40,954 nucleotides of DNA, taken from the IMG/VR virus record IMGVR_UViG_3300026484_000005, positions 1 to 40,954 of that record; one strand, written 5' to 3'. The notes below the pieces were generated by a model. That model was given only the letters and a program-made list of their open reading frames with translations. It was not told the DNA's origin and did no database searches. This document shows positions 150 through 22,302 of the stretch, piece after piece; the stretch's first letter is position 1; the number at the start of each line of letters is the position of its first letter. Origin of the DNA: a virus. Made by a program: the position numbers and the translations under genes.

Positions 150-2195
150 ATGATATACAGGAAAAGTTCAGTAAAGGAACTACTTGAGTCTTTAAGACCA
201 AGTGACCCTGTATTCTTAGATACAGAGACAAGTAAACTAGGTAGCCAAATTAGGCTGATACAAATCTATCAAGAGCATTGGGAACAGACTTTACTATTTG
301 ATACAACAGAAGTATCTGTTAGTGTTATATGGTCAATAGTACAGCCCTATAAAATAATTGGTCATAACATAACTTATGACTTTGGCTGTTTTAACAAAGA
401 TATGGAACCTGGAACATTTAAGATGCCTAGGGAGTGGGCTGATACTTTTTACATGAGTAGGTTGAGGTTTCCTGAACTTAATGCTGGTAAAGGTTTTGGT
501 TTAGACTCATGTCTAGCATATGTACTAGGTGAGGACCCATACAAGAAAGCAGGTCTTAATAAAAAAGAAATGCAGATGAGTTTTGAGCGCTTAATGGTAA
601 AAGGTGTTTATGTTGAAGGTCCTGAGGGGTTGTCTGAGCTTACAGATGACCAACTACTTTATGCTGCCATAGATGTTTATGAGTTGCCTAAGTTATACAG
701 AGAAGTAAAAGAATATGAGGACCACTTTGTTCATGTACTAGATAAGTTAACTATTGAGCATATACAAACAGATAGTAAAGGCTTGCCTCTTGACCTTGAT
801 AAACTTACAGCACTTGAAGATGCAGATATAAAACTTATAGCTAACAACACTAAGGCACTTAATGGCCTGAATGTAAACAGTTATTTACAAGTAAGAAAGG
901 CTTTAGGAACTGTAATGTCCTCTGATGAGGAAGCATTATCAATGATACAAAACAGACCTGGAGGGTTAACTGGTATTGCACTAAGAACAAAGATGACAAA
1001 AGGAAAGTTTCCTGCTGCATTACTTCTTGGTTTAAAAACTAAAACACTAAAGGTTGTTACAAGAGAATTTGGTAATGAAACAGTAGTTAACTGTGTTGAG
1101 GACTTACCTGACTCACCTAAAGTTCTGGTTTACTACTATGAGACAAGCTATGTTCATAGTGAGGAAGTTGTAGAGAAAGCTAGGCTTATAAATCAACAGA
1201 GAAAAGCTCTTAAAAGGCTAAACTTTGCTGACAGAGCTAGGAAAGCTTACACAGTTGGAGATGATGGTATACCAAGGATAAGAGGCACATTTAGTCCTCA
1301 TGCTATTAATGGTAGAATTCAGGTTGATAATGAGAACCTTTCACAGTATCCTAGAACAATGAAAAGTATGTGGGGACATCAACCAGGAAATGGTAGAAAG
1401 CTTATATACTCAGATTTTGCTCAGGTGGAACTTAGGATTATTTGTGCTGCTTTACCTGAGATGAATATGTATAAGTCACTTAAGGATGGGATTGACCTGC
1501 ATACATTTGTAGGTAACAACCTTAATCTAAGTGAGGAAGACTTAGCAAACTTACCTGAAGGTATTGAACCTAGGTTCATAGCTAAACAATGTAACTTCTT
1601 GCTACTATATGGTGGAGGTGTATCTAACTTCCAGAGAACAGTTTGTAAGCTTGGTGGTGTTTGGTTTGGAGATGACATAGCTAAAAAGATTACAACTACA
1701 TGGAAAGATATCTTCTCAGACATAAAAGGTTGGCATGCCAAAAATGGTAAGTCTAAAACAATGATGGATATAACAATTAGTGGAAGACCTTATAAGGCGG
1801 GAACAGTAACTGACCTTAACAACATTAGGGTATCAGGTACAGGTAGTGAAATATTTAAACTATGGTTACATTACATTGGAAAATATATAACAAGTCAGTA
1901 TGATGATGTTTATATTGTAAACAGAGTCCATGATAGTGTTATTATAGATGTTCCAGATGATAAAGAGTTATATACTAAACTTAGTAAACAGTTAGTGTTG
2001 ATGGCCCAGACAGCATGGTTTGAGATAACTAAGAATGCACCTCTTAAAGATGTCCCAATGCCTTGTGATGTTGGGGTAGCTAGTAACTGGAAAGATTTAG
2101 AGTATGGTAGAAACTTAGACTTTGAGTACACACTAGAAGGTATGTATATGTATGGTAAAGATTTAGAGGAGGAACTTAATGAACTCAAGTGTTAA
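150..2195 (+). CDS. Family A DNA polymerase with N-terminal 3'-5' proofreading exonuclease
   Basis: Exo motifs 'VFLDTETS', 'GHNITYDFG', 'YAAIDVYEL'. Pol motif A 'DFAQVELRIICA', motif B 'RFIAKQCNFLLLYGG' (Phe at the E. coli F762 position), motif C 'RVHDSVIIDV'. Confidence 0.92.
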   Translation: MIYRKSSVKELLESLRPSDPVFLDTETSKLGSQIRLIQIYQEHWEQTLLFDTTEVSVSVIWSIVQPYKIIGHNITYDFGCFNKDMEPGTFKMPREWADTFYMSRLRFPELNAGKGFGLDSCLAYVLGEDPYKKAGLNKKEMQMSFERLMVKGVYVEGPEGLSELTDDQLLYAAIDVYELPKLYREVKEYEDHFVHVLDKLTIEHIQTDSKGLPLDLDKLTALEDADIKLIANNTKALNGLNVNSYLQVRKALGTVMSSDEEALSMIQNRPGGLTGIALRTKMTKGKFPAALLLGLKTKTLKVVTREFGNETVVNCVEDLPDSPKVLVYYYETSYVHSEEVVEKARLINQQRKALKRLNFADRARKAYTVGDDGIPRIRGTFSPHAINGRIQVDNENLSQYPRTMKSMWGHQPGNGRKLIYSDFAQVELRIICAALPEMNMYKSLKDGIDLHTFVGNNLNLSEEDLANLPEGIEPRFIAKQCNFLLLYGGGVSNFQRTVCKLGGVWFGDDIAKKITTTWKDIFSDIKGWHAKNGKSKTMMDITISGRPYKAGTVTDLNNIRVSGTGSEIFKLWLHYIGKYITSQYDDVYIVNRVHDSVIIDVPDDKELYTKLSKQLVLMAQTAWFEITKNAPLKDVPMPCDVGVASNWKDLEYGRNLDFEYTLEGMYMYGKDLEEELNELKC

Positions 2196-2511
2196 ACAAG
2201 ACCAAGGCAAAAGAAGATTAGACCTTTTACCTTGGGATGCTTTAGACTCAGTAGGTGATGTGCTTACTTATGGTGTTAAGAAGTACCCAAAGCCTGAGGA
2301 AAATTGGAGGGTTAATTCTACTCCTGAGGACATCCCTAGGTATAAAGCTGCATTGCTTAGACACTTTAGTGCAATTCAACAAGGAGAGTTAGTAGACCCA
2401 GAAAGTGGTTTACCTCATATGGCTCATGTAGCTGCAAACAGCTTATTTATAATTGCTTTAGAAAAGAAATTTAAGGAGTCTAAAGATGGCATTATTTCAA
2501 GAGACAGCTAA
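2179..2511 (+). CDS. dATP/dGTP diphosphohydrolase-like protein (phage all-alpha NTP pyrophosphohydrolase family; I recall this as the dGTP_diPhyd_N / DUF5664 type)
   Basis: 'GKRRLDLLPWDAL..VGDVLTYGVKKY...NW' and 'DPESGLPHMAHVAANSLFI' match the conserved blocks I remember for this family. Assigned from memory, not from a search. Confidence 0.55.
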   Translation: MNSSVKQDQGKRRLDLLPWDALDSVGDVLTYGVKKYPKPEENWRVNSTPEDIPRYKAALLRHFSAIQQGELVDPESGLPHMAHVAANSLFIIALEKKFKESKDGIISRDS

Positions 2512-3439
2512 AGAGACAAAGGTTGACTTTGTTGAACTTAAACCAGAACAAACTTACAACATGACAGCACTTATAGATGCAGACACTATTGCCTATGCAG
2601 TTTGTAGTGTATGTGAGATGGGTGATGATGAGACTGGTTATACTATTGACCTTGACTATGCTTTAGAGATAGCAAATGAGAGGATTGATACAATACTTAA
2701 AGCTACAGGTTGTGGTGAAGCAGAGTTACACTTTACTAGAGGTAAAAACTTTAGGTATGCACTAGACAGTGGTTACAAGGATAACAGGTCTACAACAAGA
2801 ATTCCTGAAGGCTTAGGTGAGCTAAAAGAGTTACTTAACAAAAACTATTCAGGTTTAGTTAACACTGACTTTGAAGCAGATGACATGGTATGTATGCTAA
2901 AAAGAGAGTATCCTGAAAAGTATGTACTTGTTGCAGTAGACAAAGATGTTTTATTTGGTGTAGCTGGTACACACTTCAACTACTTTCAAAGAGCAGAAGG
3001 TAAAAACAGATATGGTACTGTTCTTAAAGAAATTAAGATGAAGTGGGTAAAAACAACTGAGAAGGATGCCTTAGCTTGGTCTTATATGCAAGCACTTATG
3101 GGTGACTCAGGTGATGGTATTAAAGGTATTCCAAAATGTGGACCTGTTAAAGCAGTAAAAACTCTGTTTCCTGAAATAGCTAAAGAGGTTAATGAAGCTA
3201 AGAAGGAGTTCAAGAAAAGGACTGAGAAAGATGCTAAGTTATTTGATGACTTAATCCATAAAGATAACATGCTTAAGGATGTTGAACTTACAGAAGAGAT
3301 TCTGTGGGAGAGGCTAAGTAAGGCTTATAAAGATAATGGTCTTGATGATAAACAAGCTATACTTAATATGAGGCTAGTAAACATGCACCAAGTAACAAAG
3401 GAGAGGGAATTATGTCTTTGGACCCAACCAACTATGTAG
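2486..3439 (+). CDS. 5'-3' exonuclease / flap endonuclease (FEN, Pol I 5'-nuclease family)
   Basis: Acidic metal-site blocks 'LIDADTIAYA', 'FEADDMV', 'VAVDKDV'. H3TH-like block 'GDSGDGIKGIPKCGPVKA'. AAGGAG RBS lies 7 nt upstream of the ATG. Confidence 0.85.
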   Translation: MALFQETAKETKVDFVELKPEQTYNMTALIDADTIAYAVCSVCEMGDDETGYTIDLDYALEIANERIDTILKATGCGEAELHFTRGKNFRYALDSGYKDNRSTTRIPEGLGELKELLNKNYSGLVNTDFEADDMVCMLKREYPEKYVLVAVDKDVLFGVAGTHFNYFQRAEGKNRYGTVLKEIKMKWVKTTEKDALAWSYMQALMGDSGDGIKGIPKCGPVKAVKTLFPEIAKEVNEAKKEFKKRTEKDAKLFDDLIHKDNMLKDVELTEEILWERLSKAYKDNGLDDKQAILNMRLVNMHQVTKERELCLWTQPTM

Positions 3440-3789
3440 AAGTTGATGAAGTAGGAGCTTACAAAGTCCTTGCAGAAAAGGTAACTCTTTACAAAGAAAA
3501 ATTCAAGAGGATAGTAGTTGTAGGCAGAGGTGGTTTAAGTGTTGCCCAAGGGCTTGCTTATAAACTTGACTTACCAGTTGTTTCACTTAAAAAGAAACAT
3601 TTAGGTAAACTAAAAGAAACAGATTTGTTTGTTGATGACATTATGTGTACTGGTGAGACTATTGGAAAGATACCTCAACATACTCATGTAGCAGTATTAA
3701 TTCAAAGAAAGTCAGCAAAAGGTTATGCACATAGTGTAGGTAAAACCTATTCAGGGTCAGAATATATTAAATTTAGCTGGGAGGCATAA
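3412..3789 (+). CDS. Small type I purine phosphoribosyltransferase (Gpt/XGPRT-like)
   Basis: 'RIVVVGRGGLSVAQGLAYKLDLP' resembles E. coli Gpt '[21 protein letters not shown]'. PRPP loop 'DLFVDDIMCTGETIG'. C-terminal 'YIKFSWE' resembles Gpt 'WIEQPWD'. Confidence 0.7.
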   Translation: MSLDPTNYVEVDEVGAYKVLAEKVTLYKEKFKRIVVVGRGGLSVAQGLAYKLDLPVVSLKKKHLGKLKETDLFVDDIMCTGETIGKIPQHTHVAVLIQRKSAKGYAHSVGKTYSGSEYIKFSWEA

Positions 3790-3790
3790 A

Positions 3791-4249
3791 ATGAGTGAAT
3801 TTAAAAACGAAAGAAGTATGAAAAGCAATGATAGCACAAGATATGGTAAAGATATAATTAAAAACTTTAACCCTGATGAAGACTTAGTATTTTGGGAGTT
3901 AAGTCCTATTAGCAAGTCAAACAGCTACTGGGTAAATATTTTACATCCAGAGATTTCAGCTCTATGTCCAGTTAGTGGATACCCTGACTCAGGTAAGGTA
4001 ACTGTTGAGTTCAAACCTAATGATAAAACTGTAGAGTTAAAAGCATTCAAACTTTGGATTAACAGTTACAGAGACACAAACATTAGCCATGAAGACTTAG
4101 CTAATGAAATTTACTCAACACTTAAAAAAGGTTTACAGCCAAAAGAGTTATATGTAAAACTTGAAATGATGCCTCGTGGTAATGTTACTACAATTGTAGA
4201 AGTTGGTAACAGCTTCAATACTTGTGTTAAACTAGGTAGGGAGGGTTAG
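3791..4249 (+). CDS. queF: NADPH-dependent 7-cyano-7-deazaguanine (preQ0) reductase, unimodular QueF
   Basis: Catalytic Cys block 'ALCPVSGYPDSG' (B. subtilis 'SLCPKTGQPDF'). QueF motif 'ELKAFKLWINSYR' (E-x-K-x-x-K-L-Y/W). 'HEDLAN', 'PRGNV'. Confidence 0.9.
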   Translation: MSEFKNERSMKSNDSTRYGKDIIKNFNPDEDLVFWELSPISKSNSYWVNILHPEISALCPVSGYPDSGKVTVEFKPNDKTVELKAFKLWINSYRDTNISHEDLANEIYSTLKKGLQPKELYVKLEMMPRGNVTTIVEVGNSFNTCVKLGREG

Positions 4250-4250
4250 T

Positions 4251-4610
4251 ATGGATAAGTTCACTAAAGACTGTCTAAGAACAGAAAGCACACTTTTTAA
4301 TGTTAAGCCTGGTACAGACAGACTACTTCATGCTGCTATGGGTATGCAAACTGAGTCTGCAGAGTTTACAGACATGCTTAAAAAGCATGTCTTTTATGGA
4401 AAGCCTTTAGATAAGGTTAATCTAAAGGAAGAGCTAGGTGACATGCTATGGTATATAGCTATTGCAATGGATGTACTTGACACTACTTTTAGTAAAGAGC
4501 AAAACAGAGTTATAAACAAACTCAAGGAAAGATACTCTGACAAGTTTAGTCAAGATAAAGCAGAGAACAGAGACTTAGAGGCTGAAAGAAGGGTTTTAGA
4601 AGATGAGTAA
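4251..4610 (+). CDS. mazG: MazG-like nucleoside triphosphate pyrophosphohydrolase
   Basis: All-alpha NTP-PPase signature 'ESAEF...KEELGDMLWYIAIAM' (E-x-x-E ... E-x-x-D metal site). Confidence 0.8.
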   Translation: MDKFTKDCLRTESTLFNVKPGTDRLLHAAMGMQTESAEFTDMLKKHVFYGKPLDKVNLKEELGDMLWYIAIAMDVLDTTFSKEQNRVINKLKERYSDKFSQDKAENRDLEAERRVLEDE

Positions 4611-5181
4611 CTATGAGCTTTGGTATGATGTTGAGACAACAGGTCTTGATGTTAATGAGGGAGCAGCAGTTGTTCAATTAGGTTGTATGCTTGTCAAGGA
4701 TGGTGAAATCCTTGACACCTTAAACCTTAAAATTAGTCCTAAATCTTATAACAGAAAAGTAGTTATTAGTAAAAAGGCTATGGAAATAAATGGTTACAAA
4801 GAGGAAGACTTTGATAGTTTTATGTCTGTAGCAGATGCAGTTAATGCCATAACACTTATGGTTAAAGAACATTGTACTGCAAAACCTACTTTGTTTGGTT
4901 ACAATAATAGTACCTTTGATAAGTACTTTATTGAGGATATGTTCAAAGTGTCTAATAGACAATTTAGTGCATTCTTTCACTGGAAACAAATTGATGTTTT
5001 TGAGCTGGTAAAAGCACTAACTGCTATGGGTATACTAGGCAAAACATTTAACCAAAAACTTGGGACAATAGCTAAATCGCTAGAGGTTGAGGCAGAAGGT
5101 GACTTACATGATGCCATAGTAGACATCAAACTAACAAGGGGTATTTACCTCAAACTACAGGAGAAATTAAAATGCAAATAA
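4603..5181 (+). CDS. DEDDh (DnaQ-like) 3'-5' exonuclease
   Basis: ExoI 'WYDVETTGL', ExoII 'GYNNSTFDKYFI', ExoIII 'HDAIVD'. Confidence 0.8.
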   Translation: MSNYELWYDVETTGLDVNEGAAVVQLGCMLVKDGEILDTLNLKISPKSYNRKVVISKKAMEINGYKEEDFDSFMSVADAVNAITLMVKEHCTAKPTLFGYNNSTFDKYFIEDMFKVSNRQFSAFFHWKQIDVFELVKALTAMGILGKTFNQKLGTIAKSLEVEAEGDLHDAIVDIKLTRGIYLKLQEKLKCK

Positions 5182-5645
5182 CAAAACAATTTAAAGCAGA
5201 GGTAGCACACAGATTAGTAGATAGCTACTCAGTAAACTGTCAGAGTATTCATGGTCATTCATACTTATTTAGAGTAACACTTGAAAGTGAGCACTTAGAC
5301 TCAACTGGTATGGTAATGGACTTTGGTGAAGTTAAGGAAAGACTAGGCTCTTTAATTGACTCTTGGGACCACTCATTTATGTTCAACACAAATGATAAGC
5401 TTAAAAATCATTACTTATCAATGCTAGCTGTTGAGCCTCTTAGAATGATAGAAGTTGATTATAACCCTACTGCAGAAAACATGGCTTACCATATCTTTAG
5501 GTCTTGTGTTAAAGCAAGTTTACCTATCAAACATGTAGAGGTGCAGGAAACACTAACAGGATGGGCTAAAGCAGATAGACTTAAACCTTTTGTTGGTGAG
5601 GATGTAACTTACTATAACATCAAAGAAGCTAAAAATGTTTTATAG
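5172..5645 (+). CDS. queD: 6-carboxy-5,6,7,8-tetrahydropterin synthase (QueD, PTPS family)
   Basis: 'FKAEVAHRL...CQSIHGHSY' Zn/His block and T-fold size. Overlaps flanking genes in operon style. Confidence 0.88.
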   Translation: MQITKQFKAEVAHRLVDSYSVNCQSIHGHSYLFRVTLESEHLDSTGMVMDFGEVKERLGSLIDSWDHSFMFNTNDKLKNHYLSMLAVEPLRMIEVDYNPTAENMAYHIFRSCVKASLPIKHVEVQETLTGWAKADRLKPFVGEDVTYYNIKEAKNVL

Positions 5646-6219
5646 AGTTGTAGAGATATTTGATAGTATTCAAGGAGAGGGTAGCTGGGCAGGAATGCCA
5701 GTTACTTTCATAAGACTCTTTGGTTGTAACCTTGACTGTAGTTTTTGTGATGAGCCTCTACATAAAAATCCAGACAACATAAGAGCATATACACTTTCTG
5801 ATTTTGGCATGAGTGACTTTAAAGACCATGTAGTTATAACTGGAGGGGAACCTAGTTTAAATGACTTAACTCTTCTTATAAAATATCTACAAACAATGGG
5901 TAAGAAGGTTGCTATTGAGTCTAATGGTTACAACTATAAAAACTTAGAAGGTGCAGACTTACTTATACTATCACCTAAAGGTGACTTAACTAAAGTGCCT
6001 GAGGGTAATTGGGATGATGTTAAACTACTTGTAGGCCCTGATGGTCTAGACCAAGAAGTTATTGAGGCATACAAGAAGACAGGTGCTGAAGTGTTCCTGA
6101 GTGGAATTAACTATGAAACAGACATAAACCCAACAACACAAGCAAAGGCATTTGAATTGTGTATGGAACACAATTGTAGGTTAAATATACAATTACACAA
6201 AGTTATAGGAGTTAGGTAA
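5635..6219 (+). CDS. queE: 7-carboxy-7-deazaguanine synthase (QueE, radical SAM)
   Basis: 'EIFDSIQGEGSWAGMPVTFIRLFGCNLDCSFCDE' is the QueE N-terminus with the CxxxCxxC cluster. 'ITGGEP'. Confidence 0.9.
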   Translation: MFYRVVEIFDSIQGEGSWAGMPVTFIRLFGCNLDCSFCDEPLHKNPDNIRAYTLSDFGMSDFKDHVVITGGEPSLNDLTLLIKYLQTMGKKVAIESNGYNYKNLEGADLLILSPKGDLTKVPEGNWDDVKLLVGPDGLDQEVIEAYKKTGAEVFLSGINYETDINPTTQAKAFELCMEHNCRLNIQLHKVIGVR

Positions 6220-6932
6220 TGATTAAGGTAATACATATTGCACCCACGGCAAATATGCTTGAGGTTGATACAAAATACAACAATGGGTTAAACATGATAC
6301 TAACTCATCTTGTGCTTAATGATAAAAAGTACAGAGAAGTAGCTGCAAAGCTTCCTGGAGTTAAATACTTAGATAACAGTTTCTTTGAGCTAGGTTACTG
6401 CCTTAAACCAGATGACATGGTAAAAGCAGCTAAGATGGTTGATGCAACAGTACTTATCTGTCCAGATGGTACACTTGATGGAGCAGATTACTTTAGGTCA
6501 GAAGGTTATAAAGTTATGGCTATTCCAAAAACACCTGAACAGTTTGTAGAGTTTATGAATGATAAGAACATTCATCTTGTTGGTGTTAGTGAGGAACACT
6601 TAGACTATAGACACTCTCCAGGAGCTAGGTATGAGTTGTTCAGAGATTATATTGAGCCTATGATGCCAAAAAACAAAATTCACTTATTAGGAGGTACAGA
6701 CAGTATTTGGGAACTAGGTATGCTAAAACCCTTTGATGCTTACATAGAGTCATGGGATAGCTCTGCAGCTATATGGCAGGGACACTTAGGGCATGACCTT
6801 AGTAATATAGCTAGAAAAGATACAACTAGTGTTGATTTTAATGCTAATGTAAACCTTTATAGTTTAACAGTTGTTAAAAATATAGATTTCATAGCTTCAC
6901 TAACAGGAGGTAAACATGCTACTAGTATATAG
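6219..6932 (+). CDS. dpdA: Minimal TGT-fold protein, putative DNA guanine transglycosylase (DpdA-like)
   Basis: Sits between queE and queC. 'LDNSFFELG' aligns with the TGT 'DSGGFQ' catalytic-Asp block. 'KIHLLGGTDSIWELGMLKPF..ESWDSSAAIWQG' aligns with TGT '[34 protein letters not shown]'. No Cys/His Zn subdomain. Confidence 0.6.
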   Translation: MIKVIHIAPTANMLEVDTKYNNGLNMILTHLVLNDKKYREVAAKLPGVKYLDNSFFELGYCLKPDDMVKAAKMVDATVLICPDGTLDGADYFRSEGYKVMAIPKTPEQFVEFMNDKNIHLVGVSEEHLDYRHSPGARYELFRDYIEPMMPKNKIHLLGGTDSIWELGMLKPFDAYIESWDSSAAIWQGHLGHDLSNIARKDTTSVDFNANVNLYSLTVVKNIDFIASLTGGKHATSI

Positions 6933-7590
6933 TGGAGGCTTAGACAGTTCAAGCGCTCTTCATATCTTCAAAGAGGATATTAAGTTAGCAGTTAGTTTTA
7001 ACTATGGTTCTAAGCATAATGCTAGAGAAATTCAAATGGCAAAACTTAACTGTGAAAGGTTAGGTATTGAGCATAAAGTAGTTAACTTAGTAGATGCTTT
7101 TAAGGATATTAAAGGTGCACTACTTAATCCTGATGAAACTATTCCACATGGACACTATGCTGAGTCTAACATGGCCTCAACAGTAGTTCCATTTAGAAAT
7201 GGTATTATGCTAAGTATTGCAGCTGGTATAGCAGAAAGCAATGGTTTAGGCAAAATAATGCTTGCTAGTCATTCTGGAGACCATGCTGTGTATCCTGACT
7301 GTACTCCAGACTTCAACAAAAGTATGTATAAAGCTATTGAGGCTGGTACATCACTAGGTATTGAAGTAGTTATGCCTTTTGAGTCAGTAGACAAGAAGTG
7401 GATTGCTAAAGAAGGTTTAAAGTCAGGTATGGTTCCTTCACAAACATACTCATGCTATGAGGGTAATGAGGTTCATTGTGGAAGGTGTGGAACTTGTGTT
7501 GAAAGACTATGGTCATTAGAAGGCCTTGGGGACAACACAGAATATAAAGATAAAAATTATTACAAAGGAGTTATAGATGGAAGTAACTAG
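6916..7590 (+). CDS. queC: 7-cyano-7-deazaguanine (preQ0) synthase QueC
   Basis: PP-loop 'LLVYSGGLDSS'. C-terminal Zn motif 'CYEG..HCGRCGTCVER'. Confidence 0.92.
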   Translation: MLLVYSGGLDSSSALHIFKEDIKLAVSFNYGSKHNAREIQMAKLNCERLGIEHKVVNLVDAFKDIKGALLNPDETIPHGHYAESNMASTVVPFRNGIMLSIAAGIAESNGLGKIMLASHSGDHAVYPDCTPDFNKSMYKAIEAGTSLGIEVVMPFESVDKKWIAKEGLKSGMVPSQTYSCYEGNEVHCGRCGTCVERLWSLEGLGDNTEYKDKNYYKGVIDGSN

Positions 7591-8146
7591 AGATGAAGCA
7601 ATTGCAGCAATGGAACAGGTAGTAACATACCTAGCTAGAGAGGGTAGAGATGCTCATACAGAAGGTACAGCAGAGAGGTTTATTAAAGGCTGGGACCAAG
7701 ATTGGGGTGAGGGTTATGACATGCCAATTAAATTCACTACTTTTGAGGATGATGGTACTGACCAAATGGTTGTAGAATTAGACATCCCAGTAGTTAGTCA
7801 CTGTTCGCATCACCTTGCACCAATTATGGGTGTATGTCATATTGCTTACTTACCTAAGGATAAAATTGTTGGTTTAAGTAAACTAAACAGAATTGTAGAA
7901 AAGTTTTCAAGACGTCTCCAGGTTCAGGAAAGACTTACAACACAAATAGCACAAGAGTTGCAAGATTTACTTGACCCAAGAGGTGTAGGTGTTCAAATTG
8001 TAGCGGAACATATGTGTGTTAGTTCTAGGGGTGTTAGACACCATGGAGCAAGAACTGTAACTACTAAGCTAACAGGCTTGTTTTTAGAGGATGCAGATGT
8101 TAAAACTGAATTTCTGCAAACTATAAATTCTCATGCAGGAAAATAG
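7577..8146 (+). CDS. folE: GTP cyclohydrolase I (FolE)
   Basis: 'VVSHCSHHLAPIMGVCHIAYLP', 'LSKLNRIVEKFSRRLQVQERLT', 'EHMCVSSRGV'. Confidence 0.92.
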   Translation: MEVTRDEAIAAMEQVVTYLAREGRDAHTEGTAERFIKGWDQDWGEGYDMPIKFTTFEDDGTDQMVVELDIPVVSHCSHHLAPIMGVCHIAYLPKDKIVGLSKLNRIVEKFSRRLQVQERLTTQIAQELQDLLDPRGVGVQIVAEHMCVSSRGVRHHGARTVTTKLTGLFLEDADVKTEFLQTINSHAGK

Positions 8147-9273: not shown

Positions 9274-9768
9274 ATGGAAGCGTTTATTAGAACTAAGAGG
9301 ATTAATGCAAAACCTATGACTAGGTTAGAGTATAATAAGTTTAGAGGTTGGGAGTTGCCATCAGATGAAAATGGCTCAGATGAAGGTATGCTAGTTGAGT
9401 ATGTAGATGAGGGTAAGCCTAACACAGATGAGTTTAAAGGTTATGTGTCTTGGTCTCCTCTAGATGTGTTTAACAGAGCTTACACACCTATTAGGGGTAT
9501 GACTTTTGGAGAAGCTATTCAAGCAATGAAAGAAGGTCAAAAGGTTTGCAGAGCTGGTTGGAATAGTAAAGGTATGTTTATTTACTATGTTGAAGCTAAT
9601 AAGTATCCAGCTAATGGGAATAAGAAAGGAACAATGGTTGGAGTATTTGAAGATGATATGGTGCCATATCAAGCATATATAGCTATGAAGACAGCCAATA
9701 ATACTGTAGTACCTTGGCTGGCTAGTCAAAGTGATATGTTAGATACCAGTTGGGAGGTAATAGATTAA
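9274..9768 (+). CDS. Two-domain protein: conserved phage N-terminal domain plus C-terminal DUF2829 (Tad2-family) domain
   Basis: C-terminal half 'MTFGEAIQAMKEGQKVCRAGWNSKGMFIYY...AYIAMKTANNTVVPWLASQSDMLDTSWEV' follows the DUF2829 consensus (F-x-E-A...G-x-K-v-x-R-x-G-W ... W-x-A-S-Q-x-D-x-L-x-x-D/S-W). Confidence 0.75.
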   Translation: MEAFIRTKRINAKPMTRLEYNKFRGWELPSDENGSDEGMLVEYVDEGKPNTDEFKGYVSWSPLDVFNRAYTPIRGMTFGEAIQAMKEGQKVCRAGWNSKGMFIYYVEANKYPANGNKKGTMVGVFEDDMVPYQAYIAMKTANNTVVPWLASQSDMLDTSWEVID

Positions 9769-10569: not shown

Positions 10570-10822
10570 CAAGTTTAAAAAGAAAAGTTTATACATTCTA
10601 GAAGTTTTTATTGTAAATGGTGATAAGCTCAAACATGGCTGGAAGAAACAAATGCAAGTAGTTTTAACAACTAAGGGGGTTTTTATTTCAGCTATTGAGA
10701 ATGCTCCTGACTGGACTGACTTTATTAATGGCAAAAAGTATAATGTGGAAGTTAGTGAAGGCTCAGGACATTTGTGGATAGCTAAACCAAGGCTAAGCTT
10801 TTTAGGAGGCTCAAATGGCTAA
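10559..10822 (+). CDS. Hypothetical protein (87 aa)
   Basis: ORF with operon-style overlaps at both ends. No motif recognised. Confidence 0.5.
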   Translation: MGTNKFKKKSLYILEVFIVNGDKLKHGWKKQMQVVLTTKGVFISAIENAPDWTDFINGKKYNVEVSEGSGHLWIAKPRLSFLGGSNG

Positions 10823-11834
10823 AAATATTTTTAATCCAGAATCTACTGAGGTATTTCACCCTATAGTTGGTGGTAATCCTGATGGGATAGCAGACTTTTC
10901 TAATCCCTCAAGAACTGTATATAAAACAATCTGGGATGGTATGTTAGATAGAACTTGGTTCCCCTCTCAAGTAGATTTATCAGGTGATATGCAAGCTATT
11001 CAACACCTTAGTCCTGCAGAAGTTAGAGCTTATAAGTTTGCTTTTGGTAAGTTGATATTTAATGACTCTGTTATAACTAACAGAATTATGGACAACATGA
11101 ACCCTTATATCACAGATCCAATAGCTAATGCTTGTTTAGCAAGGCAAAGTTTTGAGGAAGCACTACATAGTTCCTCATATGCTTATATAGGTGATGATGT
11201 TCTAAAAGAAGCTGGTATGGATAGTAAAGAGATTTATGAACTATTTAAAACTGACCCTAAACTTATTGCACTAGCTAAAGCTATTAATGCTGATTATGCA
11301 ATGTTTGATAAAGAAGGAGAGCCCACTTTTGAGGGTTTGTCTTTAGCAGCTATAGCCAATCTATCATTAGAAGGTGTTAGTTTTCCTGCTGGTTTTTCTG
11401 TAGTTTGGGCACTAGGTTCTAAAATGGTAGGCTCAGCATCTATGATTACTGAGATTAGTAAGGATGAACTAGGTAGTCATTTACCTCTTTATGCAAATAT
11501 CTACAAACATATTAAGCAAGACACTGGTGTTAATGCAGATATAAAAGCCAAGGAAATGCTTATAGCTTCTGTAGAAAGAGAGGTAGACTATTTGAAGTAC
11601 TCTACTGCTGGTGTTATGGGCTTTAATGACCAAGCTATAGACAATCTAATGTACTGGATAGGTAATGACCGCTTTAGAGAAGTAGGTTTTGGAAGAGAGT
11701 TTCCAGTAGCAAACAAAAATGATGGTCTCATAAGGCTGTTTAAGTCTTATAGTAAACTTAATGATACAAAAACTAACTTTTTTGAAGGCACAGTTAAAAA
11801 CTACTCTAAGAAAAAGCTAGACATGGACTTCTAG
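10815..11834 (+). CDS. nrdB: Ribonucleotide reductase small subunit (class I R2 / NrdB)
   Basis: Di-iron and radical blocks 'FNDSVITN' (Asp), 'EEALHSSSYAYI' (E-x-x-H plus radical Tyr), 'NLSLEGVSFPAGF' (Glu), 'EISKDELGSH' (E-x-x-H). C-terminal 'TNFFEGTVKNY' plus an acidic/hydrophobic tail. Confidence 0.85.
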   Translation: MAKNIFNPESTEVFHPIVGGNPDGIADFSNPSRTVYKTIWDGMLDRTWFPSQVDLSGDMQAIQHLSPAEVRAYKFAFGKLIFNDSVITNRIMDNMNPYITDPIANACLARQSFEEALHSSSYAYIGDDVLKEAGMDSKEIYELFKTDPKLIALAKAINADYAMFDKEGEPTFEGLSLAAIANLSLEGVSFPAGFSVVWALGSKMVGSASMITEISKDELGSHLPLYANIYKHIKQDTGVNADIKAKEMLIASVEREVDYLKYSTAGVMGFNDQAIDNLMYWIGNDRFREVGFGREFPVANKNDGLIRLFKSYSKLNDTKTNFFEGTVKNYSKKKLDMDF

Positions 11835-14793: not shown

Positions 14794-14800
14794 CTCTTCT
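14779..14800. terminator. 9-bp perfect hairpin at the convergence point of the plus and minus transcription units
   Basis: AGAAGAGCT-TTAT-AGCTCTTCT overlaps the helicase stop codon. There is no clear U-tract on either strand. Confidence 0.35.
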
Positions 14801-14827
14801 AGTATAGTAGTAATAATGGTACATTTA

Positions 14828-15397
14828 TTAATTTTCTGTATCCTTTGATAAGTCTATAATAGTCTCATACTTAGGAGCACTATTAACTTGTCTAAGTTTA
14901 ATATAGTCATTATTGTCACCAAATTCTAGTATTTCAAATATACCTGGTTTTATAAGGACTTCTTCTCCCTCTTCAAAATGACTAGAACCCCCAACACTAT
15001 ATTGAGGTATATCTGAATTATCAAATTCTATCAATATTGGCTCATGATTCCTTAGGTAATTATCTTTATCCTTATAATATAGAGCAGTGTCTAAATCATC
15101 TGTTGAAGATACCATATCATTTATCTTAACATAGCTATTCATTCTACCTTCAAATATATTATTATATTGCTCAGTAGGTATTAACTGACCTCTGAAGGTA
15201 TTTTTATCATAGTTTCCTCTTAGCTTAAACATATCTTTGAGTTCTTTAGGTAAATTTTCAGAATGGCCTATAGAATGGTCTACATTGAAATAATTATTTA
15301 ATATTTCTTGTATATTTGGGTTACTATTTAAGTACTCATCTAGATGCTCACCACTTATACTATCTAATGCTGCCTTCAATAATTTATCACATTTCAT
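14828..15397 (-). CDS. ADP-ribosyltransferase-like protein (R-S-E class)
   Basis: Ordered 'TFRGQ' (Arg region), 'MVSSTDDLDTA' (S-T-S-like region) and 'EEGEEVLIKPGIFEI' (E-x-E followed by VL[IL]xPG). ATGA overlap with the upstream virion gene. Confidence 0.55.
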   Translation of the reverse strand: MKCDKLLKAALDSISGEHLDEYLNSNPNIQEILNNYFNVDHSIGHSENLPKELKDMFKLRGNYDKNTFRGQLIPTEQYNNIFEGRMNSYVKINDMVSSTDDLDTALYYKDKDNYLRNHEPILIEFDNSDIPQYSVGGSSHFEEGEEVLIKPGIFEILEFGDNNDYIKLRQVNSAPKYETIIDLSKDTEN

Positions 15398-17790
15398 TTA
15401 CAATCCTTTACCATATCATCTAATTTCATTTTAATAATTTTCTCAGCTTCTTTTGGGTGTAACTTAACACCCTCAGATTTTTCTATATACTTAATTAACT
15501 GCTTAGCTTCATCAGTTATAATATTTTTAACCACTTTTATATTATGATTAGCATCATCTACCTTAAGTTTCTTTCTAGTATTTTTAAGTATACCCTCAAA
15601 TCTATTTTTAGCTACACCTTTAGGAGTGAAGTACTGTTTATGAATATAGTCTACTGTAGCATCAGTGCCTTTCATAGCATCTCTAACCATTTGCCATTGA
15701 GCATCCTGAACTCTTATTTTACCAGCAAGTTCTCTTCTAACAGCACTAGCTTTAGAACCTTCAGGTAAATTATTCATGACCCTAGGTATATCCTCTGAAG
15801 GTATAGTCTTGCCATCTACTATGAAGGTATCACCTGTTGGTGTCTTTTTGCTATAACCCAACTGAATGGGTTTACTAGTGCTTTTCAATGCTTCCTGAGC
15901 ATTTAACTCCTGCAGTTTTGTTATGTAATCAGTACCAATCTCCTCCTTAACTGACTGAGGTAGTTTCTCAAATGTCTTACTAAGGTCAGCAGAACCTGTT
16001 GGAGTTTTAAGTATATCAGCTAAATCATCCATCTTTCTAAGGTGTTTAGCAGTACTGCTATATGGAACATGCTTACGGGCCATGTTAGCTACTTTATTGA
16101 TAATATACACTAAAGCCTTACCCTCAGCAGTAGTTGCAATAGATGCACCTTCATGACCCATACTAGTGTTTAGAAGCCTAGTAGCATCATCAGTTTTAAA
16201 TGTTGTTTTGAATGAGTCAACTATCTCTTGAAGTCTTTTACCTTCAGGTGTAACAAAGCCCTTGTTTCTAAGATTTGAACTTACTGTCTTCCATGATTTG
16301 TTATCACTAAGTGCTGAACTTATAATACTTTTCTCTAAGGACTGTGTTTTATCAGCACCTACAAGTGTAGAAATATTTTCAAAAATATCATCACCTCCTG
16401 ATACTTTACCAATCTTAGCCATAACTTCCTCAGGAGTACTTTTTGGATTACCTTTGTATGATTTACTTCTTGCAGTAGCTATAAGGTCACCAAGTTTTGA
16501 CTCTCTAACTGTAGCCATTTTACTGTAAAGGTCATTAGTTTCTTTCCACAATTTATACTGACTTTCTGTTAAAGTGTTAGCTAATTCAGCATCAACTGCT
16601 TTACCTAATTCTGTCCATTTATGTTTACTTCTGCTTTTACTTTTCCTAATCATGCTATTGATTATAGGCATTGAGTCTACTAAGTCTTTAGAGTTAATTT
16701 GGGGATTATCTGAGCCTATTAAGTTTCTAAGTTCAGCTACATCTCCTGTAGTCGCCTCATCTAATGCTACCCAAGGTTCAGTTTCAAACTCAGCTTTAAC
16801 TGGTACACTACTTAGTGTATCCTTAACCTCTGAATACTTAGTTGCTACATCATCATATGAAGCTTTTAAATCATCTGCAAAATTAACAATATTAAAGTCA
16901 CTAGCAGCTAAATCCTTTACTGCTTTTTGTGTATCCTGAACCCTTTTGTTTAAGTTCATAACTGTTACTGGGTCACTTGAAGTTGATTGCTTAATACTAA
17001 CACCCCTATCCCCTAGCATGTCAACCATAGATTTTATTTTATTCTCAACACTATTTGACTCACCTGTAGCTTGTCTCCACTTAGTAAAGTTAGAATTAAC
17101 TGTAGCTTCATCTAAGTTGTAGTGTTCAAGCATGTAGTTGTATAGTTTGGTAGCTTTAGTTTTGTCTAACTTGTTAATAACAGCTTGAGTACCAGCACCT
17201 AAACCTCCACCTAACAACATAGCTAGGCCAGTATCTACAGCATCTCTATCAGCACCTATACTTGATGTACCAGCAATTCCAGCTTCTCTGGCACCTATAG
17301 CTAGTGCTGATTTACCTACAGATAAACCACCCAAGAGAATATTAGAAGCTATTTCACCTGCTAATGCTGGACCTTCAAGTTCTTTATCTTTAATATATTG
17401 CTCATTATCTGCTATCCATTGGTCCACTTTAGCTGACTGGCTACCTGTAAGTTTATTATAAAACCCTTCACCAAGATAAGCTACACCTAAGGTGGGTCTA
17501 GCTGCACCTCTAGCCATACCTTGTCCAACTTCACCAACTCTTTCAGTAACATTTACATTAAATGCTCCTCCATAAGTCTCTGGTTGACCAGTTGTAATAG
17601 TGCTTACAGTACCATCAGATACTGTAGGTTCTCTAAGTGTAGAATAGTCTGTAACACCAGATAATTCTGGTGCCTGCATTGATTCCATCTTAGATAAAAC
17701 ACTTGGCTCTTCAGGAGCTTCTAACTCATCCCATAGACTAGCTGAAGCTTCCTCAGCTGGAGCATCTAACTCATCCCATAAACTATTCAT
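15394..17790 (-). CDS. Large internal virion / ejection protein (798 aa)
   Basis: Lies next to the portal. Duplicated acidic N-terminal motif 'SLWDEL(D/E)AP'. Gly/Ala-rich hydrophobic segment 'GGLSVGKSALAIG...LLGGGLGAG'. No enzymatic motif recognised. Confidence 0.5.
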   Translation of the reverse strand: MNSLWDELDAPAEEASASLWDELEAPEEPSVLSKMESMQAPELSGVTDYSTLREPTVSDGTVSTITTGQPETYGGAFNVNVTERVGEVGQGMARGAARPTLGVAYLGEGFYNKLTGSQSAKVDQWIADNEQYIKDKELEGPALAGEIASNILLGGLSVGKSALAIGAREAGIAGTSSIGADRDAVDTGLAMLLGGGLGAGTQAVINKLDKTKATKLYNYMLEHYNLDEATVNSNFTKWRQATGESNSVENKIKSMVDMLGDRGVSIKQSTSSDPVTVMNLNKRVQDTQKAVKDLAASDFNIVNFADDLKASYDDVATKYSEVKDTLSSVPVKAEFETEPWVALDEATTGDVAELRNLIGSDNPQINSKDLVDSMPIINSMIRKSKSRSKHKWTELGKAVDAELANTLTESQYKLWKETNDLYSKMATVRESKLGDLIATARSKSYKGNPKSTPEEVMAKIGKVSGGDDIFENISTLVGADKTQSLEKSIISSALSDNKSWKTVSSNLRNKGFVTPEGKRLQEIVDSFKTTFKTDDATRLLNTSMGHEGASIATTAEGKALVYIINKVANMARKHVPYSSTAKHLRKMDDLADILKTPTGSADLSKTFEKLPQSVKEEIGTDYITKLQELNAQEALKSTSKPIQLGYSKKTPTGDTFIVDGKTIPSEDIPRVMNNLPEGSKASAVRRELAGKIRVQDAQWQMVRDAMKGTDATVDYIHKQYFTPKGVAKNRFEGILKNTRKKLKVDDANHNIKVVKNIITDEAKQLIKYIEKSEGVKLHPKEAEKIIKMKLDDMVKDCK

Positions 17791-19616
17791 TACTCACCTC
17801 CTATTTGTGCTCTACCTGGCATATTATTCATAGCTTGACCTTGACTCATTTGCCCAGGAAGCTGACCTTGTTGCATGGCTGCTTGTTGTTGTCCACCTAA
17901 CATCATAGCTGTCTCATCTAAGATACTAGCTAGTTCAGGACTATATTTAGACTTAACATTTTTAATTGATAATGCACCTGCTCTAAAGTATCCTGCTGGA
18001 TTAACCTGACTAAGTATATTACCTAAAGGTCCATTAATAAACTGTTCTAGCAGTTGTTGGTTCTTTTCATCATCATCATTAAAACTAACAGAGTCTATCT
18101 CAATCTCAGCTTTAGTGAATGTTATGTCAGTATCCATAGTTGGAATAGGAGCCATAATTATGTTGCCAAACTCATCTTTAACTGGCTTACCACTAGCTGG
18201 TTCTAGTACCTCTTCAAATACCATACGAGTCTGAGGTAATCCAGTTTGTGAGTCTATATATCCAGTAGGTATCTCTAGAGGTTTATTTAGCTCTATCCAC
18301 TTGTTACCTTGGTAGTTATCTGATACTCTTATAACATCATGAGCAGTATAATACTGTTTAATTAAATTAACTATATCCCAACCTAATAGTCTATAGAATT
18401 GCTCTATCTTAGAAGTACTATATCTTTGTGCAACCATTGAAGCATTTTGCTGTAACTTAACCTTCGCTCCACTATCAGATGCATATGCCATACCTAGGAA
18501 ACTATCATTTATACTAAGTACTCTCTGGACTCTATCTAAGGCCTTGTCAATAACAGTATATTGGTCAAGAACTTCTCTTGTTAAACTTTCAATCCTAATT
18601 CCAGCTAACTTTTTAACTGGTATAATAGCATTTACTCTGTTAAATTGGTCAGTAAAATCTGCTAAGTTGTCTACTGCATTGTCTTCTACAAAAGCTTTCT
18701 GTGTATTAACCATTAACTGAATTTTAATAAGTGCTTGGTTAATAGCATTTTGAGTTTCTGTAACTTCTCTAAACATACCATAAAATTCTACTTTATTTGA
18801 AGTGTTGAGCTTCTGGACTCTATAAGGATTTTTTACATCCTTATAAGTAACCTCTTCCTTGCTTAAAATAGTGTCACCACTCCAATAAACTGACCAAGTC
18901 TTGTCACCATCTTTCATAATAGTATGAACTATTAAATAGTTATCAAACCTTTTATATTGACCCTGGAACTCTGTACCATAAGTGTAAGCAAACTCTGCTT
19001 CATCAATATTTAAGTGGTTGTAGTAAGAGCCTAGTTTCTCTCTTTTTCTTTTACCAAATAAGCTATCTACCTCTTCCTCAGCTACCCATTTAAACCTATG
19101 AATGTATCTAGCATCTGAGTAGTCATCTAATCTACTCATTGGGTCAAGAGCTATTTCAAGTGAAGGTACATGATTAATTTTAATCTCATACTTAGGTCTT
19201 CCAAACTCATCTGTTTCCTCAGTTTTAACTACATCAGTATAACTACACATTAAACCAGTTAGTATACAGTCTAACTTAATTTTGTCACCTTCAAGTGCAA
19301 AGTTATTAGTTCTAAAGATGTAGTCAGTAGTGTCTTGAAGTACTGAAGCAGTAATAATACTTTCCTCTTTAGCTGGGTTAATTTTAACATTATTAACTAT
19401 TGTTGAGTAGTAGCCTAATAGCATTCTACCAAATAACTTAATAATATTAAAAGTCTCAGCAGGTTGACCCCTTAGGGCTAGTGTGTTTAGCTGGTCTGTA
19501 GTATAGTGCCTATTGTGGTAAAAGTCTAGTACTTTGAGAGCCTCCTTACGAGACTTTTCAAAAGCATCATAGCTAATCTTGAATGTATCTTTAAGATTTT
19601 CTATTGTTGGTTTCAT
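17790..19616 (-). CDS. Portal protein
   Basis: N-terminal 'FYHNRHYTTDQLNTLALRGQPAETFNIIKLFGRMLLGY' matches the portal pattern (Y..G.q....l..l...grp...N.i...v). Size is 608 aa with a Q-rich C-terminal tail. Confidence 0.75.
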   Translation of the reverse strand: MKPTIENLKDTFKISYDAFEKSRKEALKVLDFYHNRHYTTDQLNTLALRGQPAETFNIIKLFGRMLLGYYSTIVNNVKINPAKEESIITASVLQDTTDYIFRTNNFALEGDKIKLDCILTGLMCSYTDVVKTEETDEFGRPKYEIKINHVPSLEIALDPMSRLDDYSDARYIHRFKWVAEEEVDSLFGKRKREKLGSYYNHLNIDEAEFAYTYGTEFQGQYKRFDNYLIVHTIMKDGDKTWSVYWSGDTILSKEEVTYKDVKNPYRVQKLNTSNKVEFYGMFREVTETQNAINQALIKIQLMVNTQKAFVEDNAVDNLADFTDQFNRVNAIIPVKKLAGIRIESLTREVLDQYTVIDKALDRVQRVLSINDSFLGMAYASDSGAKVKLQQNASMVAQRYSTSKIEQFYRLLGWDIVNLIKQYYTAHDVIRVSDNYQGNKWIELNKPLEIPTGYIDSQTGLPQTRMVFEEVLEPASGKPVKDEFGNIIMAPIPTMDTDITFTKAEIEIDSVSFNDDDEKNQQLLEQFINGPLGNILSQVNPAGYFRAGALSIKNVKSKYSPELASILDETAMMLGGQQQAAMQQGQLPGQMSQGQAMNNMPGRAQIGGE

Positions 19617-21205: not shown

Positions 21206-21214
21206 TTTATCTCC

Positions 21215-21892
21215 TTATTGTAATAAAGCTTTGGTAACACCACCAACAACTTTACCTGTTAAGTTACCCATAGAACCAATATTAGCAGTACCTAGCTGAC
21301 CTGCTAAATCTGCTTGTTGTCCAGCTATACTAGCTTGAGTACTTATACCTGTTTGAGCTACTGAAGCTTGTGTCCCTAACATCTGAGTACCTTGGCCTAA
21401 ACCTAAGCCTAAGAAATTTAATCTACTCTGTTCAGCTATAGAGTCTTGAGATGCTCTAATATTAGCTTTTTGTGATGCTTCTTGACCATATAGTTGTGTA
21501 AGTCCTGCTGCCTCTATACCACTACCAGATATACCTCTTTGAGCTAATGCTTGAGATAACTGCTTTTGTGCAGTTTGGTACTCTTGAGAAGTTTGACCTA
21601 ATTGTTGTGCCACTATATCCTCTCCGGTATATCTTGCTATATAGTCAGCCTCCTGCTCCTGTATAGAGCCATAAATATCTTTCCAGTCATTATACTGGTC
21701 TTGTTGAAACTTTAACTGGTCCTCATACATCTTCATACTGGCATCTGAAGCTTCTTTGGATGCTTTAGCTGCAGCTTCTTGACCCTGAAAATTTGTAACT
21801 CCTATAGCATCAGTAGCAGTATGAAGACCAGACTCTACTGACCTTCCTACAGTGTCTAATAATTGACTACCACCACTTTCTATCTTTCCCAT
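21215..21892 (-). CDS. Gln/Gly/Ala-rich internal virion protein (225 aa)
   Basis: Low-complexity 'GQ..AQ..GI' repeats typical of podophage internal/ejection proteins. Assigned by position in the late operon. Confidence 0.45.
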   Translation of the reverse strand: MGKIESGGSQLLDTVGRSVESGLHTATDAIGVTNFQGQEAAAKASKEASDASMKMYEDQLKFQQDQYNDWKDIYGSIQEQEADYIARYTGEDIVAQQLGQTSQEYQTAQKQLSQALAQRGISGSGIEAAGLTQLYGQEASQKANIRASQDSIAEQSRLNFLGLGLGQGTQMLGTQASVAQTGISTQASIAGQQADLAGQLGTANIGSMGNLTGKVVGGVTKALLQ

Positions 21893-22302
21893 TATATCTC
21901 CTTATAATATTTAATCTCTATTGGAACTGCACCATAGCTATTGAACATTTTACCTGATTGCTTAGTAACACTATTAGCAATCCAACCTGAATAACCTAGT
22001 GATTTAATGTATCTTTCTGTCTCTTGCAAAAACTTTTTAACATAGTATCTATGTTTAGTGTCTACATACATAGAACTAAAGTTAACTACTACCTTGTTAG
22101 AACCTTCACCAAGAATAAAGCCTACTAAATTATCTTCCTTATACAGACCAAGAGCTATTGAGTTACTTTGAAGAAGCTCCTTATTAAGTAATCTTGCAGA
22201 TACAAAGTTACTATGCTTTGTAGGTAGAACTTCTTGGTAATCTTGATATAACTCTAATAGCCTATTATAGTCTTTGTCATCTATAATTTTAATTTTTATC
22301 AT
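21892..22302 (-). CDS. Hypothetical protein, possible GNAT-fold acetyltransferase
   Basis: Size and pattern 'NLVGFILGEG...MYVDTKHRYYVKKFLQETERYIKSLGY' resemble the GNAT beta4-alpha3 region. The Q/R-x-x-G-x-G/A motif is not canonical. Confidence 0.3.
   Translation of the reverse strand: MIKIKIIDDKDYNRLLELYQDYQEVLPTKHSNFVSARLLNKELLQSNSIALGLYKEDNLVGFILGEGSNKVVVNFSSMYVDTKHRYYVKKFLQETERYIKSLGYSGWIANSVTKQSGKMFNSYGAVPIEIKYYKEI

Follow-up and report, generated by a model that had tools for sequence, protein, structure and literature searches.

The DNA analyzed in this study is IMG/VR virus record IMGVR_UViG_3300026484_000005, positions 1 to 40,954 (the whole stretch of 40,954 nucleotides is called the window here), from an uncultured phage that encodes a small phosphoribosyltransferase (PRTase) inside a cluster of 7-deazaguanine biosynthesis genes. 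The gene cluster is a new member of the known DpdA3-type DNA modification system, and the distribution of the PRTase points to an unrecognized, widespread accessory component of deazaguanine clusters. The role favored here, at somewhat less than an even chance of being right, is salvage of guanine, which would supply GTP to FolE, the GTP-consuming first enzyme of the pathway.

The association was found by scanning IMG/VR with the PRTase as anchor, which gave at least 480 encoding stretches, and the best 80 loci were analyzed with 10-kb flanks. As a cellular control the same query was run against 185,579 species genomes, and 80 loci, archaeal and Campylobacterales, were examined. At least one of FolE, QueD, QueE, QueC or QueF lay within 10 kb of the PRTase in 72/80 viral loci but in only 2/80 cellular loci. 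The first-pass annotation of this DNA, made by a model from the sequence alone, had raised the question of whether the small PRTase travels with que and dpdA genes in other phages, and on this point the result is strongly positive. When these counts are taken together with the presence of homologs in all three phages known to replace 100% of their guanine (see below), they show that the link is real and specific and that the PRTase belongs functionally with the deazaguanine system. The usual viral order was FolE-PRT-(QueD)-QueE, so that the PRTase was sandwiched between FolE and QueD/QueE and was often the immediate neighbor of FolE, and most phage modules had the form FolE-PRT-QueD-QueE without QueC. 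Close homologs were all from the same phage lineage as the window, in the order FEN-PRT-QueF or FEN-PRT-QueD (FEN, flap endonuclease) upstream of QueE-DpdA3-QueC-FolE. Distant homologs were found in unrelated settings, among them DUF3310-PRTase fusions adjoining QueD/QueE/QueC/FolE, a PF18909 gene with the PRTase and then QueD behind it (see below) and, on contigs of large and jumbo phages, in the order QueE-PRT-QueD-FolE-DpdA3 without QueC. DUF3310, a domain of unknown function, is fused to the N-terminus of the PRTase at four loci (L013, L014, L035 and L036), whereas in Rhizobium phage RHph_I1_18 (L006, 7989-9257) it forms the C-terminal part of a DpdA3-like protein, and through these two types of fusion it is physically linked to both PRTase and DpdA3-like proteins.

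Homologs of the PRTase were also present in 13-24 GenBank phage records. A tblastn search of GenBank phages with the window PRTase gave no match, and these homologs emerged only by profile searches or by queries with large-phage PRTases. They include Cellulophaga phages phiST, phi13:1 and phi19:2 (CGPG_00045, three genes from ribonucleotide reductase, RNR), Flavobacterium phages immuto_2-6A, 3-5A and 13-6C (gp211, between QueE and FolE in a cluster where DpdN, QueF, a hydrolase and a 'thymidylate kinase' are encoded too), 15 records from eleven named CP220-like Campylobacter phages (CPT_0182 in CP220, hidden Markov model (HMM) E 3.6e-22), Brevundimonas phages StAshley and MaInes (in StAshley the order is RNR beta, RNR alpha, deoxynucleoside monophosphate (dNMP) kinase, FolE, PRT) and Synechococcus phage BUCT-ZZ01 (QueE-PRT-x-QueD-FolE). 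Phages 9g, CAjan, nt-1 and Rosebush, which are presumably partial-replacement DpdA1/2 phages, were not matched in three PRTase tblastn searches. Replacement of 100% of guanine has been measured in exactly three phages, CP220, phiST and immuto_2-6A (PMC10516641), and all three have a PRTase homolog. The GenBank annotation of these genes is 'phosphoribosyl transferase' in several phages and, once, in phage F379, 'purine phosphoribosyltransferase / queuosine biosynthesis protein'.

Two of these genomes carry further genes that may be of interest. Two genes after FolE, BUCT-ZZ01 encodes a 416-amino-acid (aa) 'hypothetical protein' (UTS52034.1; L107, 12161-13411) with the tRNA-guanine transglycosylase (TGT) motifs ADSGGLQ, LHVLGIG and YDST, motifs that suggest a DpdA not annotated as such and distinct from the DpdA3 type, and the 447-aa protein encoded between FolE and UTS52034.1 recurs in 8 PRTase-anchored loci. 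In CP220, the DpdA3 gene CPT_0056 is flanked by CPT_0055, a fusion of an HD-phosphohydrolase and a P-loop domain, and by the P-loop NTPase CPT_0057 (L103, 3542-6035; FN667788, 53542-56035), nucleotide-metabolism neighbors that could bear on a route through the nucleotide pool.

Despite this association, the PRTase gene is accessory. When IMG/VR loci were instead anchored on DpdA3, the PRTase was seen in 25/80, and in 24/50 of those in which QueE and FolE were both seen. Relatives of the window (L020-L024) keep DpdA3 and the que genes with FEN followed directly by QueF or the exonuclease gene and no PRTase. It is because these relatives keep everything else, and because only 24 of the 50 fully covered DpdA3 clusters have the gene, that it is called accessory here. 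A recognizable DpdA was found within 10 kb in only about 11/80 PRTase-anchored loci, a count that is confined to the flanks and does not imply genome-wide absence, and a DpdA-family gene was present in every complete PRTase-positive isolate genome checked. One PRTase-positive phage contig in GenBank, MT835497, has no que gene nearby.

The PRTase of the window is, according to profile and fold comparison, a trimmed variant of the Gpt/XGPRT-type purine PRTases. As a single sequence it falls under the cut-offs of Pfam PF00156 (19.7 vs 26.3 bits) and NCBIfam PRK09177 (19.6 vs 138 bits), with xanthine PRTase as its best NCBIfam match and a match to phrog_8995 at 7e-8. Only two close homologs were found among 5.8 billion proteins, and a profile search of 1.84 billion representatives gave 429 relatives, mostly of 115-150 aa. 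A profile of 17 relatives matched the Pyrococcus horikoshii purine PRTase 1vdm over its full length (E 1.5e-16) and also Sulfolobus solfataricus GpT-1/GpT-2, Helicobacter pylori XGHPRT and Escherichia coli XGPRT, the last at about 1e-7. Among cellular proteins, the nearest relatives come from archaea and Campylobacterales and belong to the family of the solved purine PRTases. The AlphaFold2 (AF2) model has a mean predicted local distance difference test score (pLDDT) of 64, with core residues 11-98 at 61-88 and the C-terminal 27 residues unmodelled, and the top Foldseek matches of the model were 1vdm, 5vog and E. coli XGPRT (E 2e-4 to 1e-3; template modeling (TM) scores 0.4-0.54). The earlier label 'Gpt-like' is therefore a fair one, since both the family profile and the fold match Gpt/XGPRT enzymes.

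Conservation around the active site is uneven. The closest homologs show no variation in the segments VGRGGLSVAQ and DLFVDDIMCTGET, and the pyrophosphate (PPi) and 5-phosphoribosyl-1-pyrophosphate (PRPP) motifs align with the same motifs in 1vdm, 4trb, 4z1o and 7kl6. Although homologs are no more than 40-53% identical overall, none deviates in the GRGG loop, the PRPP motif or the C-terminal aromatic/FSWE motif, and the family also retains the stacking aromatic and, at the O6-Lys position, a basic residue. Compared with 1vdm, 4trb and 4z1o, the window PRTase has about 17 fewer residues in the flexible catalytic loop that joins strands 2 and 3. Large-phage homologs keep a long loop. The position of the general-base Asp that contacts purine N7, which is equivalent to D137 of human HGPRT, the 'DTG' Asp, is Cys79 in the window protein. 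This Asp is kept in 80/98 distinct phage homologs and 77/82 cellular homologs, and Cys is found at the position in 8, of which 7 are from the lineage of the window. Since deazaguanine bases have no N7, Cys79 was considered as a signature of a deazaguanine substrate, but it was rejected as a general argument because most homologs (80/98), que-linked ones included, have Asp and because Cys does not track QueF or QueC content.

The other protein that places this cluster among known systems is the 237-aa product of the gene between QueE and QueC. It has no Pfam and no PHROG match, but an HMM grown from it matched immuto_2-6A gp206, which is annotated as DpdA, at E 9e-23, as well as phiST CGPG_00065 (E 2e-13) and CP220 CPT_0056 (E 1e-16). 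These three proteins are DpdA3 as defined by Hutinet et al. 2023 (PMC10516641), and by these HMM links the 237-aa protein is assigned to the DpdA3 family. It carries recognizable TGT-like motifs (LDNSFFEL, IHLLGG, SWDSS), and the AF2 model is a TIM barrel (pLDDT 93) with no Zn subdomain. A fold search placed TGT among the top matches, with other TIM barrels scoring equally, and a HMMER profile search of PDB sequences from the DpdA3-like protein did not match TGT. In metagenomes the protein has 91 other homologous clusters, and because there are thus at least 92 related clusters, none with a Pfam domain, this DpdA3-bearing lineage is common yet unannotated.

The window encodes the complete preQ1 (7-aminomethyl-7-deazaguanine) pathway, FolE, QueD, QueE and QueC as well as QueF, together with the DpdA3-family transglycosylase. 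DpdA3 phages show complete replacement of G, and a phage with DpdA3 and these five enzymes 'should have complete replacement to preQ1' (PMC10516641). As the window has both, this uncultured 41-kb phage is predicted to have all of its G replaced by the deoxynucleoside of preQ1 (dPreQ1).

The model favored in this study suggests that the PRTase is the phage version of a cellular 6-oxopurine PRTase of the Gpt/XGPRT type and would convert free guanine and PRPP to GMP. The guanine would come from DpdA3 base exchange and from breakdown of host nucleic acid, host kinases would turn the GMP into the GTP that FolE uses as substrate, and each exchanged guanine would thus be recycled into new deazaguanine. 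At the same time free guanine, a product of the exchange reaction, would be held low. Where every G is exchanged, both guanine release and GTP demand would be stoichiometrically large, and salvage would be relevant only if exchange reaches a large fraction of the G. This would explain why the PRTase is found in complete-replacement phages and also why it can be dispensed with in relatives whose hosts do the job. An ordinary purine substrate with an N7 is in keeping with the N7-contacting Asp, GRGG loop and PRPP motif retained by the family, and with its basic (O6-Lys position) and stacking aromatic residues. Additionally, salvage is favored by the clusters that end at 7-carboxy-7-deazaguanine (CDG), where the C7 carboxylate would sit unfavorably next to an Asp. 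The first-pass annotation had put forward two hypotheses, a PRTase acting on free preQ0 or preQ1 in a pre-replicative route and a PRTase salvaging the guanine released by DpdA. Neither is proven, and the retention of Asp in most homologs, the likeness to housekeeping Gpt and the accessory distribution lean towards the second.

Several points weigh against guanine salvage. The window PRTase lacks two catalytic features of 6-oxopurine PRTases, with Asp changed to Cys79 and the loop about 17 aa shorter, so it may be a poor guanine enzyme or have an altered substrate. This Cys79, short-loop variant is poorly explained by salvage and by a deazaguanine substrate as well. The exchange of guanine for preQ1 by bacterial tRNA-guanine transglycosylase is regarded as practically irreversible, and for this reason a guanine sink may be needless. 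Most PRTase-anchored modules have no recognizable DpdA within 10 kb. The setting in a biosynthetic operon and the precedent of TubE (PMC6112128) fit a step of the pathway equally well, and the 7-amido-7-deazaguanine (ADG) nucleoside reported in the cytoplasm of CP220-infected cells, as cited in PMC10516641, hints at free deazaguanine nucleotides.

The alternative that survives best, although it is considered rather unlikely, is that the PRTase itself acts on a deazaguanine base. In this case CDG, ADG, preQ0 or preQ1, depending on the cluster, would be joined to PRPP as by TubE and ToyH, the ribonucleotide would be phosphorylated, reduced by RNR and incorporated by the phage polymerase, and the outcome would be complete replacement by a pre-replicative route, with MazG, PF18909 and HD proteins helping by degrading the competing dGTP. 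Complete replacement in other well-understood phage systems, those of T4, SPO1 and S-2L, is a nucleotide-pool phenomenon. Such a route would be consistent with the presence of the PRTase in all three 100%-replacement phages and with pool genes located nearby, namely the RNR beta and alpha and dNMP kinase genes of StAshley, the RNR three genes from the phiST PRTase and a MazG-like gene in the same phage, the immuto 'thymidylate kinase' and the HD-plus-P-loop and P-loop proteins of CP220. Loss of the N7-contacting Asp in the subclade of the window also agrees with it. TubE is a proven CDG:PRPP PRTase encoded beside FolE, QueD and QueE homologs in a cluster without QueC (PMC6112128; bioRxiv 10.64898/2026.04.15.718813), and most phage modules, being FolE-PRT-QueD-QueE with no QueC, match the content of that cluster. 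In addition to the ADG nucleoside seen in infected cells (cited in PMC10516641), attempts to make DpdA3 work in the E. coli test system failed, and its action on DNA was never demonstrated (PMC10516641). However, every complete PRTase-positive isolate genome checked has a DpdA-family gene, which would be redundant if the modified nucleotide came from the pool, and close relatives without the PRTase have kept everything else. The Asp is also kept in 80/98 homologs, including those in CDG-type clusters, and the window has no nucleoside monophosphate (NMP) kinase or RNR large subunit of its own.

The two pyrophosphohydrolase-family genes of the window, PF18909 and MazG, argue against the same route, since both are generic phage genes. 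The first-pass annotation had called them NTP pyrophosphohydrolases, and Pfam and PHROG matches bear out this family label; it is a label only, from which no substrate can be inferred. The ExxE...EExxD metal-binding motif of MazG can be read in the window protein (TESAEF, KEELGD), and no solved structure was found among PF18909 relatives. Homologs were found in 1,203 (PF18909) and 993 (MazG) GenBank phage records from many phage groups. Within the lineage of the window, PF18909 follows PolA with or without the PRTase, and MazG is sporadic, being in the cluster of only a few members. MazG was present in 1/80 and PF18909 in 6/80 DpdA3-anchored loci, and neither was present in the PRTase-anchored loci. 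PF18909 is a generic gene of phage replication modules. Because PF18909 and MazG occur widely among phages that have no que genes and do not track the cluster, they are most likely ordinary housekeeping genes of the phage nucleotide pool rather than dedicated parts of the pathway. The only hint that MazG recurs with the cluster is a MazG-like gene inside the phiST cluster, CGPG_00068, which the window MazG HMM matched at 1e-10. A dGTP-depleting role is possible, but the proposal that the two genes form such an arm, like MazZ and DatZ, is left unsupported by these record counts, by the tracking of PF18909 with PolA and by the sporadic MazG. On three short metagenomic contigs (L016-L018), a PF18909 gene runs into the start of an Asp-type PRTase gene that is followed by QueD, which is the only direct PF18909-PRTase adjacency found outside the lineage of the window. 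A single superfamily of PF18909, DUF3310 and MazG was also considered, since the DUF3310-PRTase fusions would then tie the PF18909 gene of the window to the PRTase, but hhalign, run with shallow alignments, found no relationship.

A broader version of the pool idea, which is thought unlikely, is that DpdA3 phages reach 100% replacement at the nucleotide level and not by base exchange on finished DNA. Either the PRTase would build a deazaguanine nucleotide as TubE does, or the short, Zn-less DpdA3 would swap the base on dGMP or dGTP while the PRTase mops up guanine, and in both cases kinases, RNR and dGTP-degrading enzymes would finish the pre-replicative route. If this is true, the PRTase, and not DpdA3 alone, marks complete replacement of G, and the published claim that deazaguanine DNA modifications are all post-replicative is wrong for the DpdA3 class. 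Finally, the quite improbable idea that the PRTase serves general purine salvage for replication, or is a non-catalytic PRPP- or nucleotide-binding regulator like PyrR, PurR or ppGpp-binding PRTase-like proteins, with no specific tie to modification chemistry, would suit an accessory protein under the Pfam cut-off that lacks the flexible loop and the general-base Asp, whose second-best fold match (5vog) is a PRTase-like protein crystallized with ppGpp, and also the que-less contig MT835497, but it is hard to reconcile with the 72/80 vs 2/80 loci and the FolE-QueD/QueE sandwich, and with PRPP and PPi motifs that are invariant at such low overall identity.

The genes discussed above lie in a run of eleven open reading frames (ORFs) behind PolA, on the + strand from 2179 to 8146, and because the ORF ends abut or overlap, the run looks like a single operon (Table 1). 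The gene names, order, coordinates and strand given by the first-pass annotation all agree with the ORFs and with the Pfam, NCBIfam, PHROG and HMM results. QueD, QueC and QueF scored over the Pfam or NCBIfam cut-offs, QueE was identified by radical-SAM matches, and an HMM seeded with FolE matched genes annotated as GTP cyclohydrolase I in Ahp1 (6e-79) and immuto (gp210, 6e-61). The 3' end of FEN overlaps the PRTase start by 28 nt, and FEN is the immediate upstream neighbor of the PRTase in all members of the lineage. The window covers nearly all of a metagenomic contig of 40,968 bases, and a megablast search with a 12 kb query found no nucleotide relatives of it among GenBank phages.

Table 1. 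Features of the window in and around the deazaguanine gene cluster, with the basis of each assignment.
Feature	Position	Strand	Basis or remark
PolA	150-2195	+	precedes the run of eleven ORFs
PF18909 (dGTP_diPhyd_N) protein, 110 aa	2179-2511	+	Pfam 91.4 bits vs cut-off 27; phrog_801 1.8e-30
FEN / 5'-3' exonuclease	2486-3439	+	phrog_107 1.5e-47; weak Pfam 5_3_exonuc matches
Small Gpt/XGPRT-type PRTase, 125 aa	3412-3789	+	profile and fold; GRGGL loop, PRPP motif LFVDDIMC79TGET
QueF (unimodular preQ0 reductase)	3791-4249	+	TIGR03139 91 bits vs cut-off 86.9; Pfam QueF 72.6 bits
MazG-type all-alpha NTP pyrophosphohydrolase, 119 aa	4251-4610	+	Pfam 27.8 bits vs cut-off 22; phrog_229 2e-40
DnaQ/RNase T-like 3'-5' exonuclease	4603-5181	+	Pfam RNase_T 2e-14; phrog_192
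QueD (CPH4 synthase)	5172-5645	+	Pfam PTPS 97.6 bits
QueE (CDG synthase, radical SAM)	5635-6219	+	Pfam Radical_SAM, Fer4_12; synteny with annotated QueE genes
DpdA3-family TGT-like TIM-barrel protein, 237 aa, without Zn subdomain	6219-6932	+	HMM links to published DpdA3 proteins
QueC (preQ0 synthase)	6916-7590	+	Pfam QueC 162.6 bits
FolE (GTP cyclohydrolase I), GTP-consuming first step	7577-8146	+	HMM links
ORF of unknown function, 94 aa	8133-8417		directly 3' of FolE
Tad2-like protein (Thoeris anti-defence 2)	9274-9768		PF11195, 88 bits
RNR small subunit	10815-11834		Pfam 125 bits

Outside the run, the 94-aa ORF keeps its position throughout the lineage ('orf94' matches, 16 ORFs) and extends past 8326, the start listed for the DNA ligase ORF, which makes a more downstream start of the ligase probable. 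The Tad2-like gene is just downstream of the ligase, and in one relative (L003) such a gene immediately follows QueF. An RNR small subunit gene is present, and neither an RNR large subunit nor a nucleotide kinase was detected in the window. Both the GC skew and the coding strand flip at about 14.8 kb and revert at about 34 kb, and the long minus-strand ORFs in between (~14800-34000), which had no Pfam matches where tested, presumably form the structural module.

The current explanation of phage 7-deazaguanine DNA modification is entirely one of base exchange on DNA by DpdA enzymes. In the literature searched, no role in it has been assigned to a PRTase, and no paper on phage DNA modification beyond the original one was found to name DpdA3. 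The term 'phosphoribosyl' is absent from the 2023 reference paper (PMC10516641), and 'phosphoribosyltransferase' is absent from the 2019 reference paper. How the DpdA3 class achieves complete replacement is a question on which the PRTase bears, and either answer about its substrate would add a step to the pathway and bear on whether complete deazaguanine replacement is purely post-replicative. Such knowledge could be used to engineer fully deazaguanine-substituted DNA and to better predict modification levels from phage genomes.

When the window is compared with known systems, the closest are the DpdA3 phages phiST, immuto_2-6A and CP220 described by Hutinet et al. 2023 (PMC10516641). The gene set of the window is that of immuto_2-6A minus DpdN, and a PRTase homolog is common to all four, although that of the window is a minimal Cys variant, the window phage (~41 kb) is unrelated to the other three and the published DpdA3 model does not have a PRTase step. 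Among cellular enzymes, the best profile and fold matches are Gpt/XGPRT proteins (E. coli XGPRT, H. pylori XGHPRT, 1vdm and GpT-1/GpT-2), which have the type I PRTase core in common with the window protein: the GRGG PPi loop, the acidic pair with TGxT, the stacking aromatic and a C-terminal (F/Y)xWE. The window PRTase differs from them in its length (125 aa vs ~150), in the shortened loop and Asp-to-Cys change already described, and in its place inside a phage deazaguanine operon, since cellular homologs only rarely (2/80) have a que gene nearby. Like the Z-genome phages with PurZ, MazZ and DatZ, the window pairs a base-modification pathway with NTP pyrophosphohydrolase-family genes, and the Pfam name of PF18909 is 'dATP/dGTP diphosphohydrolase, N-terminal'. 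However, unlike in the Z-genome logic, the PF18909 and MazG families are widespread in phages without que genes and are absent from most PRTase-que modules. The tubercidin and toyocamycin clusters of Streptomyces (TubE and ToyH; PMC6112128) offer a likeness in gene content: a PF00156-type PRTase is co-clustered with homologs of GTP cyclohydrolase I, QueD and QueE, and the tubercidin cluster, like most phage modules, has no QueC. The products of these Streptomyces clusters are free nucleoside antibiotics, and no nucleic-acid transglycosylase is encoded there, whereas the operon of the window has DpdA3.

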